NCBI GenBank assembly: GCA_902610585.1
Contig: CACLWE010000006.1
Span: forward strand, 9,378 to 73,377
Source: an uncultured Pelagibacteraceae bacterium
GTDB taxonomy: Bacteria; Pseudomonadota; Alphaproteobacteria; Pelagibacterales; AG-422-B15
DNA length: 64,000 nucleotides
Direction of reading: 5' to 3'
The notes under the pieces are model-generated. The model had not been told where the DNA came from. It saw nothing but the letters and a program-made list of their open reading frames with translations, and ran no database searches. How positions within the stretch are numbered: position 1 is the stretch's first letter; the number at the start of each line of letters is the position of its first letter. Of this stretch, positions 7,767 through 61,682 are shown one piece after another. A program made the position numbers and the translations under genes.

Positions 7767-8841
7767 TTCTTTCATACAGATAAACGGAATTTCAAAGCAT
7801 TTTGGGAATGTAAAAGCTGTAGATGATGTGTCCTTTGAAATTAAAGAGGGAGAGTTTTTTTCTCTTCTTGGCCCGTCAGGCTGTGGCAAGACAACTTTAC
7901 TGAGATTACTAGCTGGATTCGAATATCCAACCAGTGGGAGCCTATTACTTGATGGTATTGATATTACTGCATTACCTCCCGACAAAAGACCCACAAATAT
8001 GGTTTTTCAGAATTACGCAATTTTTCCACACATCAATGTTGAAAAAAATGTACAGTTTGGTTTAAGAAAACTTGGTCTAACAAACGATGAAATTATCAAA
8101 AGAGTTAAAGACGTTTTGTCGTTGGTTAAACTAGAAGGATATGAGGAACGCTATAGTAGCCAACTATCTGGAGGTCAAAGACAAAGAGTGGCATTGGCGA
8201 GGGCTTTAGTAAGACAACCCAAGGTCTTATTGCTAGATGAACCACTTGGAGCATTAGATAAAAAGTTACGAGATGAAATGCAACTTGAATTAAGAACTCT
8301 GCAAAAAGAGATTGGAATAACATTTGTATTTGTTACACATGATCAGCAAGAAGCCATTAGTATGTCTGATCGAGTCGCGGTGATGAGCGAAGGTAAAATC
8401 CAACAGATGTCATCTCCAAATGAATTATATAAAAACCCACAAAATATTTTTGTGAGTGACTTTATTGGTGAAACTAATTTTCTAAAAGCCAATACAGAGT
8501 TGAAAGATGGCGAGTATATTAATGTAAACATTGAAAATCTTGGCTCCTTTAAAATAAAAAATAATCTCAATATAAGTGAAAATGCTTCGGAGGTTATTTG
8601 CAGTGTTCGTCCTGAGACTATGATGATAGATACAGAAAAATCAGATTGGGATATTTGCTTAGAAGGCAAAATTAAGCAAACATCATATTTGGGAGAAATG
8701 ACTAAATTTTATGTTGAAACCAAAGAGATAGAAAAAATTATAACTGTATCGTCACAATATTTTGACAATCAGTCTTTTCAAGATGGTAAATGCTTTATCA
8801 GCATAAACCTAAACGATATTTCCTTACTGAATAAAAAATAG
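7759..8841 (+). CDS. ABC transporter ATP-binding protein, PotA/PotG-like
   Basis: Walker A GPSGCGKTT, signature LSGGQRQR, Walker B LLLDEP. It overlaps the permease gene by 8 nt. Confidence 0.9.
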   Translation: MNNSFIQINGISKHFGNVKAVDDVSFEIKEGEFFSLLGPSGCGKTTLLRLLAGFEYPTSGSLLLDGIDITALPPDKRPTNMVFQNYAIFPHINVEKNVQFGLRKLGLTNDEIIKRVKDVLSLVKLEGYEERYSSQLSGGQRQRVALARALVRQPKVLLLDEPLGALDKKLRDEMQLELRTLQKEIGITFVFVTHDQQEAISMSDRVAVMSEGKIQQMSSPNELYKNPQNIFVSDFIGETNFLKANTELKDGEYINVNIENLGSFKIKNNLNISENASEVICSVRPETMMIDTEKSDWDICLEGKIKQTSYLGEMTKFYVETKEIEKIITVSSQYFDNQSFQDGKCFISINLNDISLLNKK

Positions 8842-8895
8842 CCTGTCCTCAAGAGAGAACAAGCTATTTTAAATTAGTTAATAATTAGTAGTGTA

Positions 8896-9984
8896 TTAAC
8901 CACCAGCTACCATTTCAGCCCACTGAGCTTCCATGTAGTCTGTCACTTCGTCAGTTGGCATCACCGAGAACATTCCATTATTTAAATGTTCTATAGGATT
9001 TGAAGCAACGCCACGTTCAGCTAATTCGTCAGCTGTAAGTGTGCTAAATCCAGCTTTATTACTGTGTCCATAACCCCACTCACTTAATAAGTAAGCAGAT
9101 GTTTCAGCACTAGTAGCGCCATTTATCATCGCGTATGCTTTATCAAGGTCTGCACCTTTAACAATTGCAAGACCACATGCCCAAGTCATCGTGCCATTAG
9201 GAGGCTGCATCATTTTAGCTCCTGCGCTCCAAGCAATTTCGTTCCAGCCAAGTGCTACGTCTATTTCTTCGTTACCTAGCGCTTCTATCATTGAAGAAGT
9301 ATCTCCAAAGAATGCACGAATTTGTCCATTGTCTCTCATTTCACGGAACTTATCGATACCTTGATCAATAGCAGCTTTAGTTAGTTGATCTTGCTCTCTG
9401 ATATCAATTCCAAGATGGTGCATCATTAAGAACAAAGAGTCAGCTGCAGAGTCTAATATACCGACTTTACCTTTCACTCGAGGATCCTCCATAAGAGCAA
9501 AACTTTCATTAGAAGCATCCATCCAATCAATTCTATCAGCCATGTAAAACAATGTTGTGTCGCCCCAATCTACAGGTGCAAAATAATGCTTTCCATCGAC
9601 TATACCGCTTGGTAGATCTCTAACTTCAGGGAACATATCATCCCAGTTGTCAATTCTAGATGGATCAAGTGGCTCTAAAACGCCAGCTCTTACCCATCTC
9701 TTAATTTCTCCTTGGCATGGCCAGGCTAAATCAACCTCAAAACCAGCTTTTAGTTTTTGTAATCCTTCTTCAGCATCACCGAATATTGAATACTCAGGTG
9801 AACCGTGTTCTTCAGCATATGTACCAAACAGTCCATCATCATCGTAACCTCCCCAAAGGAATACAGACCCAGGCTCATCTGCAAAAACTTTTGTCGTACT
9901 TGTTACGCCTGCAATAAAAACAAACGACAGCATCACGATTACAGTTTTTACAAAGAAATCCTTAATTTCATTGTATCTTTGCAT
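8896..9984 (-). CDS. periplasmic substrate-binding protein of a Pot-type (polyamine/amine) ABC transporter
   Basis: N-terminal signal-like segment (VIVMLSFVFIAGVTSTTKVFA). About 360 aa with an acidic/aromatic PotD/PotF-like composition. Sits adjacent to the ABC genes. Confidence 0.8.
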   Translation of the reverse strand: MQRYNEIKDFFVKTVIVMLSFVFIAGVTSTTKVFADEPGSVFLWGGYDDDGLFGTYAEEHGSPEYSIFGDAEEGLQKLKAGFEVDLAWPCQGEIKRWVRAGVLEPLDPSRIDNWDDMFPEVRDLPSGIVDGKHYFAPVDWGDTTLFYMADRIDWMDASNESFALMEDPRVKGKVGILDSAADSLFLMMHHLGIDIREQDQLTKAAIDQGIDKFREMRDNGQIRAFFGDTSSMIEALGNEEIDVALGWNEIAWSAGAKMMQPPNGTMTWACGLAIVKGADLDKAYAMINGATSAETSAYLLSEWGYGHSNKAGFSTLTADELAERGVASNPIEHLNNGMFSVMPTDEVTDYMEAQWAEMVAGG

Positions 9985-10019
9985 AATTAATTAATCCTTT
10001 TTTTTGTTTAAACGTGAAA

Positions 10020-10049
10020 ATTGTACACCCATTTTGGAAATATGGTCAA
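10020..10049 (-). promoter_or_regulatory. sigma70-like promoter for the substrate-binding protein gene (-35 TTGACC, 18-nt spacer, -10 TACAAT on the minus strand)
   Basis: Plus-strand GGTCAA at 10044-10049 and ATTGTA at 10020-10025. An AAGGA Shine-Dalgarno lies upstream of the ATG at 9984. Confidence 0.4.
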
Positions 10050-10055
10050 TATATA

Positions 10056-11549
10056 TCAGTCTAGAATAGGCCTATTTTTCGCACTATTCAGCCACGGATC
10101 GACCATTTCATAGTTGTACCCTCCTTGAAATACTAATTCATCACAGTAGGAGCGTGAAATAATCTGGATGCCAGTAGGCACTCGGTTTGAACTAAAGCCA
10201 GAGGGTACGGAAAGGACTGGCAGTTTACCCAACATATTGAATGGGTGAGACATGCACCATGCAAAGTCAGCACATTCTTGTTCTTTGCCATTAATAATGA
10301 CGCGGTCATTAACTATATCAATATCTGCTTTGATTGCTGGTAAGGCATTGGTGGGGCAAATAAATAAATCATATTTTTCCAATATTGGACCAATTTCTTC
10401 ATACATTTTTCCAGTCACCATTGCACTTTCTTCAACGCTATAACCCAAGTGAGCACCAATTTGTTCGTGATAAATTTTTTTATTATTTTTTAGGGAGTCA
10501 ATGTGCATTTCAGTAACACCGCTGAACATTTTTGTGTAATCACTCAGCTGTTCTTTTTCAGAATCTGAAAGCTCAGAAATTTCTTTATAAAAAGAATTTG
10601 CATAATGACTGAAGCAAACCGAATTTACTTCATCTTTTTTCCAATTAAGTTTCACCTCTGTGACCTGACATCCAAGACTTTCAAATTTTTTTAACGCTGT
10701 CAGTGTGTTCTGTTCTACTTCTTTATCAATCTCAAAAAATCCCAAGTCCATTGAATAAGCTATTTTCCAATTTTTAATATTTTCGTAATTTAATGGTAAT
10801 GTTTTTTTTGGACGTAAAGATGTTATGTCTTTTTCGTTTGGTCCACACATAATGTTTTGCATCATTGCAGTATCAACTACTGTTCTTGCGAGTGGTCCTG
10901 TTACGCAGTAAGGGTCATGATTGAATGGATAACTTTGTGCATTTCTTCCATGAGGTGGCTTGAATCCGACTACACCACATGCGCCTGCTGGTATTCTTAT
11001 TGAACCTCCAATGTCACTTCCTGTTGTCAACATTGCACAACCTGAAGCTAATGCAGCCGCACTACCTCCACTTGATCCACCAGGTGTCATATCTAAGTTC
11101 CAAGGATTTCTTGTGACGCCATTTAGTTTCGAGTGACAAAAAGAAGTGAGAGAAAATTCTGGATTGGTTGTGCGACCGTGAAGTATCGCGCCAGAATTGA
11201 CTATTGTTTCAACATCAATGTCAGTTTTCTGTGCGATATTATTCTTGAGAAGCAAACAACCATTACGATTTGGTTGTCCTTTTATATTCACCTCATCTTT
11301 TATTGCTAAAGGTAATCCTTCAAGAGGCAGAACATCATCACTATTGAAAAATTTTTTCTCAGACTCTTTTGCCAGTTCTATAGACTTATCAAAATCAAGA
11401 TGATTAAATGCATTTATCTTAGGATTAATTGTTTCTATTCTTTTAATTACAGCCGACAGTACTTCAACTGGAGATAATTTTTTTTCTTTATACTTCTTTA
11501 ATGTATCTGAAGCGGATAAATAACAAATTTCAATATCAGTATCATTCAT
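10056..11549 (-). CDS. amidase-signature family amidase (GatA-like fold)
   Basis: 497 aa. AS-family glycine/serine-rich motif GGSSGGSAAALASG followed by GSDIGGSIRIPA. Confidence 0.85.
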   Translation of the reverse strand: MNDTDIEICYLSASDTLKKYKEKKLSPVEVLSAVIKRIETINPKINAFNHLDFDKSIELAKESEKKFFNSDDVLPLEGLPLAIKDEVNIKGQPNRNGCLLLKNNIAQKTDIDVETIVNSGAILHGRTTNPEFSLTSFCHSKLNGVTRNPWNLDMTPGGSSGGSAAALASGCAMLTTGSDIGGSIRIPAGACGVVGFKPPHGRNAQSYPFNHDPYCVTGPLARTVVDTAMMQNIMCGPNEKDITSLRPKKTLPLNYENIKNWKIAYSMDLGFFEIDKEVEQNTLTALKKFESLGCQVTEVKLNWKKDEVNSVCFSHYANSFYKEISELSDSEKEQLSDYTKMFSGVTEMHIDSLKNNKKIYHEQIGAHLGYSVEESAMVTGKMYEEIGPILEKYDLFICPTNALPAIKADIDIVNDRVIINGKEQECADFAWCMSHPFNMLGKLPVLSVPSGFSSNRVPTGIQIISRSYCDELVFQGGYNYEMVDPWLNSAKNRPILD

Positions 11550-58413: not shown

Positions 58414-58503
58414 GGAAAGGTGGCCGAGTGGTTGAAGGCGCACGCTTGGAAAGCGTGTATGCGGGTGACCGTATCGTGGGTTCGAATCCCATCCTTTCCG
58501 CCA
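58414..58503 (+). tRNA. tRNA-Ser (anticodon GGA)
   Basis: Hand-folded. Acceptor GGAAAGG/CCTTTCC. Anticodon stem CACGC/GCGTG with loop TTGGAAA. Long variable arm. T-arm GTGGG-TTCGAAT-CCCAT. Encoded CCA. It starts on the base after the lepA TAA. Confidence 0.9.
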
Positions 58504-58543: not shown

Positions 58544-59566
58544 ATGGCTATGAATTTAGATAAATTTGAGAAATATCCACTTACTTATGGACCGACTCCA
58601 ATTGAGTATCTGCCGCGTTTGACTGAAGCGATAGGCGCTGATGTTGAGATATATGCAAAGAGAGATGACTGTAATTCAGGTTTGGCTATGGGTGGAAATA
58701 AACTAAGAAAACTAGAATATATTGTTCCAGATGCTATTGCCTCTGGAGCTGACACATTAGTTTCTATTGGCGGTGTTCAATCTAACCATACTAGAATGGT
58801 AGCTGCAACTGCTGCAAAAATTGGAATGAAGTGTGTAGTTGTTCAAGAAAGTTGGGTTCCTCATGAAGATGCAGTTTACGATCGTGTTGGTAATATTTTA
58901 ATGACGCGTTTGATGGGAGCAGATAGCAGGTTAGTACCTGACGGTTTTGATATTGGGATTAGAAAAAGTTGGGAAGACGCAATTCAATCAGTGAAAGATA
59001 GTGGTGGTAAGCCTTATGCAATTCCAGCCGGGGCATCTGTGCATAAATATGGTGGACTGGGATACGTAGGATTTGCTGAAGAAGTTCGAATGCAAGAAAA
59101 AGAGTTGTCATTAAAATTTGATTACATCATTGTGTGTGTAGTTACTGGTTCAACTCAGGCAGGGATGATCGTTGGGTTCGCAGAAGATGACCGTGCACAC
59201 AGAGTCATAGGTATTGATGGATCGGGTACACCAGATAAATTAGTCAAGCAAGTAAGAGAAATTGTAGATAATACAGTTGATTTAGTTGAACTTGGAAGAA
59301 CAATTAGAGATGATGAAATAATAATAATTCCTGACTATGCATATCCAGCATACGGAGTTCCGAGTGAAGAAACTAATGAGGCTATTCGTATGGCAGCAAA
59401 AACTGAAGCCATGATTACCGATCCTGTTTATGAGGGCAAATCTATGCAAGGAATGATTGATTTAGCCAGGAAAGGTTACTTTAAAAAAGGATCTAAAATA
59501 CTCTATGCTCATCTTGGCGGAGTTCCAGCTATTAATGGCTACTCATATACCTACCGTAATGGATAA
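58544..59566 (+). CDS. acdS: 1-aminocyclopropane-1-carboxylate deaminase / D-cysteine desulfhydrase family PLP enzyme (ACC-deaminase-like)
   Basis: It matches the AcdS sequence as I recall it along the whole length ([65 protein letters not shown]). The true start may be the ATG at 58550. Confidence 0.8.
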
Positions 59567-59572
59567 ATACAT

Positions 59573-59629
59573 CTAAAGTCCACCGGTAATTAGACTTATC
59601 ATTCCAAGTACAAGCCATAAGACAACCAT
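59573..59629 (-). other. 18-codon mini-ORF (MVVLWLVLGMISLITGGL), a duplicated 3' end of the small membrane-protein gene at 61472..61636
   Basis: Hand translation. It matches the C-terminus MLILWLVLGMVGLITGGL of the 54-aa ORF. Six consecutive codons differ only synonymously. An in-frame TAA lies 2 codons upstream of the ATG. Confidence 0.3.
59600..59622. repeat. direct repeat copy A (CATTCCAAGTACAAGCCATAAGA), downstream flank of ggt
   Basis: 23/23 identical to 61499..61521. Weaker similarity extends to about 59573-59636. Confidence 0.85.
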
Positions 59630-59639
59630 TGTTTTTTAG

Positions 59640-61430
59640 TTAATTGCCCAGTGCAATTCCCTCACGTCTTGGGTCTGAGCCTCCATAAATTTCAGTATCA
59701 ATATATATTCCATTTAGGCCTGAATAGTATTTTCTTATTTTAGTATCGTATCCCATGGCCTTTAGAGAATTTTCAAGATTTGAAGAGTAAAGAGATTCTT
59801 CTATTTCAAATTTCCCCCATCTATTAATAGCGTGAGGATGAGAGACTGCCTCTTGAATATTCATATCCCATTCGAGTAATGCGATTATCGAATTGACTAC
59901 AAAGCTGATAATATTACTGCCACCTGGAGAGCCGATAATAATGATAGGCCTTCCATCTTTTAGCACTATTGTTGGTGCCATTGATGATCTTGGCCTTTTC
60001 CCGGGCTCTAATCTATTTGCTATCAGCTTGCCATCAATTCTTTCATTAAATGAAAAATCAGTAAGTTGATTATTAAGTAAAAAACCACTTTCCGTCATCA
60101 ATCTTGATCCGAATGCATTCTCAATTGACGATGTCATCGAGAGTGCGTTTCCATACTGATCATAAATTGAAATATGCGTTGTAGATTGCAGCTCTAATGA
60201 CTTGTCTATTCCGTAATTGTAAACAAAGTCGTTAGACGGTTTACCTGAGGTTACATTTTCAGTTTTCGTTCCAACTTTAATTTTATTTGACCTTTCAATC
60301 AGATAATTGTCATTTAAAAGACCAGACAAAGGTACACTGACATAATCACTATCTGCCAAGTATCGATCGCGATCAGCAAATGCAAGACGAGTCGCATCTC
60401 CAATTATTTGCCATGTTATAGGATTTGAATAGCCCAGAGACTGAAGATCATAAGGCTCTAAAATTTTCAATATTTGCGCGACTGCTACTCCTCCAGACGA
60501 TGGTGGGCCCATGCCACATATTTTGTATACCTTATAGTTTACACAAACTGGATCTCTTTCTATTACATTGTAGTTGCCCAAATCTTCAGCTTCTAGAAAG
60601 CCAGGATTTTTGGTGTGATTTTTTACTGTGCTAATAATGTCCTGCGCAATTGATCCTTTATAGAAATCTTCAATGTTATTGTTAGCAATGTTTTGCATTG
60701 TGCTTGCATAAGCATAATTCTTCAATACCTGCTTGTGCTTTAAACTATTCCCATTTGGTAAAAAATATTCTTTCGTTTTATCTATTTTGCTAAGTCTATC
60801 TTTATCTCTTTCAATTGATGAGGATAATTTTTTTGAAACTTTAAAACCATTTTTACTTAGGAAAATTGCATCATCAAAGAGGTTTTCCCACTTTTGATTA
60901 CCCCATTTCTTTTGAGCATCAAACATTAATGCAAGAGTTCCAGGTGTACCAACCGATAGACCACCTATGACAGCATCAAAAAACTTCATTTTAGTTCCAT
61001 CACTTTTTAGAAATTGATTTGTAGTTGAGTTTTGTGGTGCAGTCTCACGACCATCTAAAGTAACTATTTTACCCGTTACACCGTCATACCATAACAAGAA
61101 ACTACCCCCACCAATTCCTGATGACTCAGGCTCGACTAAGCCTAACATAGATTGAGCTGCAACCATTGCATCTGCTGCTGTACCTCCAGATTGTAATATT
61201 TTTGCACCAGCAGCTGAAGCATAGGCGTTTGCCGTGACAATCATCCAGTTTTTACTTGAAACAGATTTTCCATTTTCTTTGAGATTGAGTGACTCTTGAA
61301 TTTCTAATCTATCAAGCTCTACTGAGACACCTTCAAATATTTCTGGAGAATTATCCTTAATATTATTGTCAGAATATGAATTTTTTAGTGAGAAAAATAA
61401 TATTAAAAATACAAGTAAAATTTTTTGCAT
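59640..61430 (-). CDS. ggt: gamma-glutamyltransferase (periplasmic, Ntn-hydrolase)
   Basis: Start taken at 61430 (MQKILLVFLILFFSLKNSYS signal peptide). Autoprocessing/nucleophile motif STTHISIYD. GSPGGSNII motif. Confidence 0.85.
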   Translation of the reverse strand: MQKILLVFLILFFSLKNSYSDNNIKDNSPEIFEGVSVELDRLEIQESLNLKENGKSVSSKNWMIVTANAYASAAGAKILQSGGTAADAMVAAQSMLGLVEPESSGIGGGSFLLWYDGVTGKIVTLDGRETAPQNSTTNQFLKSDGTKMKFFDAVIGGLSVGTPGTLALMFDAQKKWGNQKWENLFDDAIFLSKNGFKVSKKLSSSIERDKDRLSKIDKTKEYFLPNGNSLKHKQVLKNYAYASTMQNIANNNIEDFYKGSIAQDIISTVKNHTKNPGFLEAEDLGNYNVIERDPVCVNYKVYKICGMGPPSSGGVAVAQILKILEPYDLQSLGYSNPITWQIIGDATRLAFADRDRYLADSDYVSVPLSGLLNDNYLIERSNKIKVGTKTENVTSGKPSNDFVYNYGIDKSLELQSTTHISIYDQYGNALSMTSSIENAFGSRLMTESGFLLNNQLTDFSFNERIDGKLIANRLEPGKRPRSSMAPTIVLKDGRPIIIIGSPGGSNIISFVVNSIIALLEWDMNIQEAVSHPHAINRWGKFEIEESLYSSNLENSLKAMGYDTKIRKYYSGLNGIYIDTEIYGGSDPRREGIALGN

Positions 61431-61471
61431 AAAAACCAGATCATCATACCAGTGCAATAAATGTTTAGGTG

Positions 61472-61636
61472 TTATAAGCCTCCAGTGATGAGACCAACCA
61501 TTCCAAGTACAAGCCATAAGATTAACATTGTTCTTTCATTAAATGCTCTTGTACTCTCAATTTTCTTCGCCTGCTTATAAATCACCATAGATAAAAGCAT
61601 TACCAAGACCAGAAGGTATATAATTGTAAATATCAT
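61472..61636 (-). CDS. possible 54-aa two-TM small membrane protein (MIFTIIYLLVLVMLLSMVIYKQAKKIESTRAFNERTMLILWLVLGMVGLITGGL)
   Basis: Hand-translated ORF 41 nt upstream of ggt. Its 3' end is duplicated downstream of ggt with peptide-conserving substitutions, which argues that the reading frame is real. Confidence 0.45.
   Translation of the reverse strand: MIFTIIYLLVLVMLLSMVIYKQAKKIESTRAFNERTMLILWLVLGMVGLITGGL
61499..61521. repeat. direct repeat copy B (CATTCCAAGTACAAGCCATAAGA), upstream flank of ggt
   Basis: 23/23 identical to 59600..59622, 1899 bp away in the same orientation. Confidence 0.85.
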
Positions 61637-61682
61637 GTGATTTATAGTATCAATTCGACGTTGGAAGTATATAAATTAAAAC

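Follow-up and report, generated by a model that had tools for sequence, protein, structure and literature searches.

SAR11 bacteria have almost no mobile elements yet are very variable in gene content, and the entry and exit of single genes are only partly understood. Flexible genomic islands of these bacteria are reportedly also treated by Rodriguez-Valera et al. 2016. A population study published in 2025 recorded 61 flexible islands in SAR11, with a median length of 1.4 kb and a single gene in 47.5% of them; these islands lack canonical mobile elements, and seven adjoin tRNAs, four with partial tRNA repeats that mark cassette insertion (PMC11796062). Here, we analyze one locus in a 64,000-nucleotide stretch of DNA (hereafter, the window) from an uncultured Pelagibacteraceae bacterium (GenBank assembly GCA_902610585.1, contig CACLWE010000006.1, positions 9,378 to 73,377 of the forward strand). 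At this locus, ggt, the gene for a gamma-glutamyltranspeptidase, is bracketed by an intact small membrane-protein gene, which we call small54, and by a second, truncated copy of a small54 end. Judging from the sequence comparisons reported below, the window haplotype quite probably arose by an illegitimate recombination between two variants of a variable SAR11 locus, which would have left a scar beside a tRNA-Ser gene.

Insertion with long target duplication, for which Nobusato et al. 2000 and Furuta et al. 2010 are reportedly named together, is one of the described processes closest to this locus. It involves a short gene segment without mobility genes and direct repeats of >30 bp, which match a single-copy target in relatives and often overlap the 3' end of a gene (PMC2853133). 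Homology-facilitated illegitimate recombination (de Vries and Wackernagel 2002, cited in PMC8116780), as the citing source outlines it, combines one homologous anchor with one microhomology joint.

Our data show that the 23-nucleotide sequence CATTCCAAGTACAAGCCATAAGA (hereafter, the 23-mer) occurs in two exact copies in the window, which lie on the same strand with a spacing of 1899 bp and enclose ggt as their sole gene. By chance, zero copies are expected (100 shuffles), and no further copy with ≤3 mismatches was found in the 64-kb window. The positions, orientation, and spacing of the 23-mer and the ggt-only interval given in an earlier note on this DNA were reproduced exactly. On the minus strand, small54 is followed by ggt and by an 18-codon mini-open reading frame (mini-ORF); beyond the latter, on the plus strand, are an acdS-like gene for a pyridoxal phosphate (PLP)-dependent enzyme and tRNA-Ser(GGA), with lepA following. 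The C-terminal end of small54 reads ...MLILWLVLGMVGLITGGL, and the mini-ORF peptide reads MVVLWLVLGMISLITGGL. The two 57-nucleotide ends are identical at 43 of 57 positions (75%), and all differences in their last six sense codons are synonymous (CTC/CTA, ATC/ATT, ACT/ACC, GGA/GGT, GGC/GGA, and TTA/CTT), again in agreement with the earlier note. The similarity continues ~23 nucleotides 5' of the mini-ORF ATG, where it reaches the final ggt codons, and the repeated stretch measures ~67-80 nucleotides overall. The features of the locus are as follows.

61472..61636, minus strand: small54, the ggt-linked ("C-type") allele; an intact gene of 54 codons for a membrane protein with two predicted helices.
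61499..61521: upstream copy of the 23-mer; codes for (I)LWLVLGM of small54.
59640..61430, minus strand: ggt, gamma-glutamyltranspeptidase; 596 amino acids with a signal-like N-terminal segment, counted from the ATG at 61430 (Pfam PF01019, G_glu_transpept, E = 1e-146).
59640..59649, minus strand: junction microhomology; the last ggt codons and stop, GGGCAATTAA, in register with GGGCATTTAA (codons 30-33 of the empty-site small54 allele).
59573..59639, minus strand: 5'-truncated remnant of the acdS-linked ("A-type") small54, a pseudogene fragment that comprises the mini-ORF (59573..59629, minus strand) and the 10 nucleotides upstream of it.
59600..59622: downstream copy of the 23-mer, inside the remnant.
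59567..59572: 6-nucleotide spacer between the remnant stop and the acdS stop; its length equals that of the small54-acdS spacer of empty sites.
58544..59566, plus strand: acdS-like gene for a PLP-dependent enzyme (1-aminocyclopropane-1-carboxylate deaminase/D-cysteine desulfhydrase family; Pfam PALP, E = 2e-47), convergent with the remnant.
58414..58503, plus strand: tRNA-Ser(GGA) (ARAGORN, Rfam), the conserved right border of the variable locus.

We compared this locus across 24 species-representative Pelagibacteraceae genomes (mostly single-cell) and 13 metagenome contigs, with the contig L027 added by identity look-up, and found small54 in 37 related loci. The flanks are conserved, with LysE-DUF2061-MFS-small54 on one side and tRNA-Ser-lepA on the other, and the content between them varies. 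Across the 37 loci, at least five configurations occur between small54 and tRNA-Ser, which we grouped as follows.

Type A (empty): small54 converges directly on acdS, with 6 nucleotides between the stops; L015, L020, L022, L023, and L027.
Type B (window type): small54-ggt-mini-ORF-acdS; L006, L007, L009, L011, L012, L013, L021, L025, L029, L030, and L031, as well as L028, which has a secondary deletion.
Type C (ggt only): small54-ggt and then tRNA-Ser, without acdS and without the mini-ORF; L003, L005, L010, L019, and L024.
Other cargo: L002/L040, L004, L008, L014, L016, L017, L018, L026, L032, L033, L035, and L037.

The search for empty sites in relatives that the earlier note had proposed was thus successful, with five loci in which one small54 copy abuts acdS and ggt is lacking. 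We found the window-type structure in eight independent single-cell genomes and also in four contigs from metagenomes, including one from the Sanger-sequenced Global Ocean Sampling data; because the arrangement recurs in this way, we rejected an assembly artefact. In addition, the mini-ORF was found exactly where ggt and acdS co-occur and was absent from every ggt locus without acdS. The acdS-like gene is itself polymorphic in its presence, occurring in empty-site loci and not in ggt-only loci. With alternative gene contents at the same position between conserved flanks, the stretch from small54 to tRNA-Ser(GGA) is a small flexible genomic island of the Pelagibacteraceae (SAR11) population.

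The sequence of the mini-ORF points to its source. The consensus of nine mini-ORF copies is identical at 52 of 57 positions to the 3' end of the A-type small54 of empty sites, and at 43 of 57 to the full copy in their own genomes. Of 10 sites that are diagnostic for the A and C alleles and lie on both sides of the 23-mer, the mini-ORF consensus matches A at nine and C at none; conversely, the full small54 copy of the window matches C at nine and A at none. The mini-ORF then runs into the same 6-nucleotide spacer and acdS end as in empty sites. Given the matches at diagnostic sites and the shared contiguity with the spacer and acdS, the mini-ORF is a contiguous, 5'-truncated end of the acdS-linked A allele. 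The six synonymous differences accordingly represent divergence that two functional alleles under purifying selection had accumulated before they were joined; a synonymous pattern inherited from a full-length functional allele therefore says nothing about selection on the fragment.

According to one proposal of the earlier note, ggt is a cassette that was integrated site-specifically into the 3' end of small54, with a crossover in the 23-bp core, and that brought along a copy of the gene end. The layout (full gene, cargo, and displaced gene end, with an exact 23-bp repeat) is what such an event would leave, empty sites are indeed present, and the neighboring tRNA-Ser has classic partial-copy repeats in relatives. 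However, the 23-mer does not behave as an attachment (att) core. It is also found, in exact form, in empty-site loci (L020 and L022), ggt-only loci, and loci with other cargo, and both copies are exact in 5 of the 13 window-type structures (the window and 12 related loci). To the left and right of the 23-mer, each copy follows one and the same allele, with no exchange of flanks across it, and the boundary of the duplication is located 37 nucleotides upstream of the 23-mer, at the ggt stop. Moreover, no integrase or recombinase gene was detected among LysE, DUF2061, MFS, small54, ggt, PALP, and tRNA-Ser (i.e., from LysE to lepA), as the earlier note had stated, and no copy of the 23-mer was found in a viral contig collection. 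Together with the differing junction of an independent remnant in L032 (see below), these findings make site-specific integration at the 23-mer extremely improbable. The 23-mer codes for LWLVLGM, the least variable part of small54, and its identity between copies marks only the most conserved coding stretch of the gene. A Campbell-type single-crossover integration of a circularised fragment was also rejected, since it likewise predicts swapped allele flanks, which are not seen.

We then place the probable junction elsewhere. The 3' end of ggt reads ...GGA ATT GCA CTG GGC AAT TAA in window-type loci, in ggt-only loci, and in L008, meaning that the native ggt end is unchanged with or without the remnant; the divergent ggt genes of L004, L014, L018, and L032 have variant ends (e.g., GGAAATTAA and GGCGATTAA). 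In ggt-only loci, 10-15 nucleotides follow ggt before the tRNA begins. In window-type loci, ggt is followed by CTAAAGAACAATG..., the counterpart of TGAGAGAACAATG in the A allele. The 10 nucleotides that precede this sequence in the A allele are GGGCATTTAA, and ggt in the same register reads GGGCAATTAA; the two match at 9 of 10 positions, for which the chance at a fixed register is ~7e-5 at the local base composition. This alignment suggests that the real junction lies at the ggt stop, on a microhomology, and not in the 23-mer. Because the junction is common to all window-type loci, it arose once. One suggestion of the earlier note, namely that ggt had entered by microhomology-mediated insertion, is therefore partly borne out: ggt and the remnant meet at a microhomology and no integrase was detected from LysE to lepA, but the joined piece is not ggt alone, as it comprises ggt together with a complete foreign small54 allele (or, equivalently, acdS together with a piece of its own small54 allele).

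A second remnant, in L032, arose independently. It derives from another allele (the L002 type), starts at about codon 24, contains two stops, and lies 15 nucleotides after the stop of a divergent ggt, with an acyltransferase-like gene next to it instead of acdS. The window-type remnant starts at about codon 31, at the ggt stop itself. The breakpoints in L032 thus differ in both partners, which argues against a site-specific process; att integration would place independent insertions at the same junction, and these two do not share one.

These junctions also bear on the possibility that an integrase acted in trans, as in a tycheposon-like cassette system, on a core formed by the true junction GGGCAnTTAA rather than by the 23-mer. 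Such a system would account for the 9/10 match between the partners at the junction, and partial tRNA-Ser copies do occur in the same island. Nevertheless, the supposed core consists of the last ggt codons and varies as ggt diverges (GGAAATTAA, GGAAATTAG, and GGCGATTAA), the full copy carries, in its 5' part, the allele of ggt-only genomes and not the A allele of the recipient, and ggt is not flanked by conserved arm sequences. In view of these points and of the displaced L032 junction, we consider an integrase in trans improbable.

The nine mini-ORF copies contain 14 nonsynonymous and 4 synonymous single-base variants, and the neutral expectation from site counts is 2.95:1; for the corresponding 18 codons of full-length small54 in these nine genomes, we counted 1 nonsynonymous and 8 synonymous variants. 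The mini-ORF has acquired a stop in L013 (TGG>TAG, W>stop), has lost its ATG in L011 and L013, and shows radical exchanges of glycine (G>R and G>E) in L007, L025, and L031. Furthermore, the remnant of L028 (3320-3345) breaks off after ATGGTTGTC, where it joins acdS at residue 327 of 340, the result of a secondary deletion of ~90 nucleotides that removed most of the remnant and the last 13 acdS codons. Across relatives, then, neither purifying selection nor retention of start and frame is seen, and the mini-ORF has evolved neutrally, as a pseudogene, since the joining.

The earlier note had offered, as an alternative, that the 18-residue hydrophobic peptide is a functional mini-protein that selection maintains on either side of ggt. 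In its favor are its ATG, its open frame, its hydrophobic helix, and, in the window, last six codons that differ from the full copy only synonymously. However, the 14:4 ratio matches neutrality, starts and frame have been lost as described, the fragment is mostly deleted in L028 and absent from ggt loci without acdS, and descent from the A allele accounts for the synonymous pattern. We therefore find it scarcely credible that the peptide is under selection.

Two replacements, V>I and G>S, are common to all window-type remnants and absent from 26 full-length alleles, with L027 as the sole full-length exception. Their being shared is consistent with one truncation event, after which selection was relaxed. 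In L027 (310-474), an empty-site contig, the full-length small54 has an A-type 5' part and a remnant-type 3' end (…LRMISLITGRL), which is identical to the L031 remnant, including two G>R changes. This allele is best read as a recombinant between A and B haplotypes, in which a functional allele recombined with the pseudogene fragment, or as a chimeric assembly. As the other empty-site alleles are A-type over their full length and have the conserved VG residues, L027 does not represent their ancestral state.

The L027 allele is also pertinent to the idea that the small54 end was duplicated in tandem within one genome and then diverged, or that empty sites arose later, when ggt was deleted between the repeats. 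Duplication can generate direct repeats, and direct repeats can lead to deletion; moreover, the full-length small54 of L027 has a remnant-type 3' end. Yet a duplicated copy should start as the allele of its own genome and drift neutrally from there, whereas the fragment bears the synonymous signature of another extant allele. A deletion, in turn, should yield chimeras of a C-type 5' part and a remnant 3' part, whereas empty-site alleles are A-type throughout, including the 5' part and VG. Both versions are thus very unlikely.

Collectively, the comparisons favor the joining of two locus variants, for which we envisage the following course. The parental haplotypes would have been small54(A) followed by the convergent acdS and small54(C)-ggt followed by tRNA-Ser. 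DNA would first have passed between co-occurring lineages, and the small54(C)-ggt segment was probably fused, at the ggt stop, to a segment that runs from about codon 31 of small54(A) onward into acdS, with the fusion taking place at the 10-nucleotide microhomology. On the other side, an ordinary homologous exchange in the conserved flank would have completed the event, by homology-facilitated illegitimate recombination or by insertion with long target duplication. The joined haplotype would then have spread, and its alleles would have been shuffled, by homologous recombination.

Several points weigh against this scenario. The 6 nucleotides after the ggt stop (CTAAAG) agree with the A allele (TGAGAG) in only half of the positions (3 of 6), so that the exact breakpoint is uncertain by ~10 nucleotides and the microhomology could be partly fortuitous. 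Both independent remnants directly follow ggt, which could hint at a specificity of the ggt module. In addition, flank identities and the acdS and ggt trees intermix the haplotypes, having been scrambled by recombination, and do not reveal the homologous anchor; ggt may have entered an acdS genome, or acdS a ggt genome. Finally, we know of no demonstration of natural transformation in SAR11.

Beyond the single event, we postulate, tentatively and as a rather unlikely extension, that the small54 end is a recurrent, recombinase-free landing zone, at which the island grows additively by joins that are homologous on one side and microhomologous on the other. Possible scars of such a process are the two small54 remnants after ggt, a possible third one in L008, and an insert at the tRNA end that is bounded by the 5-nucleotide sequence TGGCG. 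In L008 (11995-12640), ggt is followed by a spacer and the first 5 nucleotides of the tRNA end (TGGCG) and then by a 31-nucleotide fragment that resembles small54 codons 13-23 (26 of 31 positions identical, z = 7.2 versus shuffles). Next come a 184-amino-acid gene on the opposite strand and TGGCG again, which starts a partial tRNA copy. The 31-nucleotide fragment may be a third scar of illegitimate insertion. If the landing-zone idea is true and general, gene-end scars would make it possible to read how the most abundant bacterium of the ocean has gained genes without integrases.

Regarding small54 itself, a protein search returned 15 clusters from marine metagenomes and Pelagibacteraceae genomes, with 73-98% identity and nearly all of 54 amino acids, and variation in the last 18 codons of 26 full-length copies is mostly synonymous. 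From this pattern, small54 is a real gene under purifying selection. It is an orphan gene, conserved only within one Pelagibacteraceae subclade. No Pfam family matched it above the cut-off, and the "YsdA/DUF1294" label that the Joint Genome Institute gives to two of the clusters was set aside, as the Pfam scan lends it no support. small54 and the MFS transporter gene are divergent, with 46 nucleotides (61637-61682) between their start codons.

The ggt frame is open further upstream, to an ATG inside the 23-mer (61431-61517, minus strand), which would give a 625-amino-acid ORF overlapping small54. We rejected this extended frame, also as a reason for the conservation of the 23-mer, because a 1-nucleotide deletion in the L009 spacer breaks it, and for the same reason we take the ATG at 61430 as the ggt start. 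A promoter and terminator scan and an Rfam search revealed nothing in or near the remnant.

At the other border of the island, 58-nucleotide copies of the 3' part of tRNA-Ser(GGA) occur in L008 (12641-13992), L009 (13133-13909), L011 (5350-6562), L016 (10993-12106), L018 (14263-15709), and L025 (13135-14265), and there are none in the window. Each copy is followed by a conserved arm of ~40 nucleotides (TTCATGAGTCCAAGATTAGAGGATAATTTTT...), a different single gene (139 to 270 amino acids), and the intact tRNA. These units look like integrase-less cassettes. L001, a 1.34-Mb long-read metagenome contig, contains two tandem copies of small54 and the ggt 5' end (7965-8295 and 8815-10458) with ~520 bp of unrelated sequence between them; its ggt and acdS have many frameshifts and deletions, which probably stem from faulty assembly or polishing of a mixed population, and we set this contig aside as too error-prone to serve as evidence.

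One additive event that needed no integrase can be traced here at base resolution. Natural populations still contain both parents and the joined product, along with its decayed forms, a secondary deletion, and a recombinant back-product. The illegitimate joining of locus variants would be an ordinary route of gene gain for such bacteria. The locus also calls for caution in two respects: a duplication that conserves the peptide and differs only synonymously can reflect inherited divergence of alleles rather than selection on a mini-protein, and an exact repeat need not be an attachment site when it lies in a conserved coding stretch.

How, then, does the locus compare with the described systems? 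Like the SAR11 flexible islands (PMC11796062), it occupies a fixed chromosomal position in related genomes where contents of one or a few genes alternate, lacks canonical mobile elements, and has a tRNA border with partial tRNA repeats; that study reports partial tRNA repeats only, whereas here a protein-gene remnant with a microhomology junction can be followed base by base. Tycheposon-like, integrase-less tRNA cassettes (Hackl et al. 2023) show the same succession of full gene, cargo, and displaced 3' end. Theirs, however, is a pattern of exact attachment cores, conserved arms, and recurring junctions, and the small54 repeat has no crossover in a core and has junctions that vary.

Insertion with long target duplication is similar in that empty sites have one repeat copy (L015, L020, L022, L023, and L027), the repeat of ~67-80 nucleotides exceeds 30 bp, and the insert between the repeats consists of ggt only, without mobility genes. 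In contrast, both published repeats are near-identical to the target and the cargo is a restriction-modification system (PMC2853133), whereas the upstream copy in the window is a complete, distinct allele, 75% identical to the downstream one, and the cargo is a metabolic gene. Indeed, the two copies are not equally close to the target: the downstream copy matches the target allele at 52 of 57 positions, and the upstream copy matches the downstream one at 43 of 57. With homology-facilitated illegitimate recombination, as far as the citing source (PMC8116780) describes it, the locus shares an additive outcome, a joint on short microhomology, and independence from recombinase genes. That process was shown experimentally in naturally transformable bacteria, whereas in the window the anchor side is presumed and the microhomology is longer (9/10). 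What is specific here is therefore no new mechanism; it is a protein-gene scar with a resolved microhomology junction, both of whose parental haplotypes are extant.

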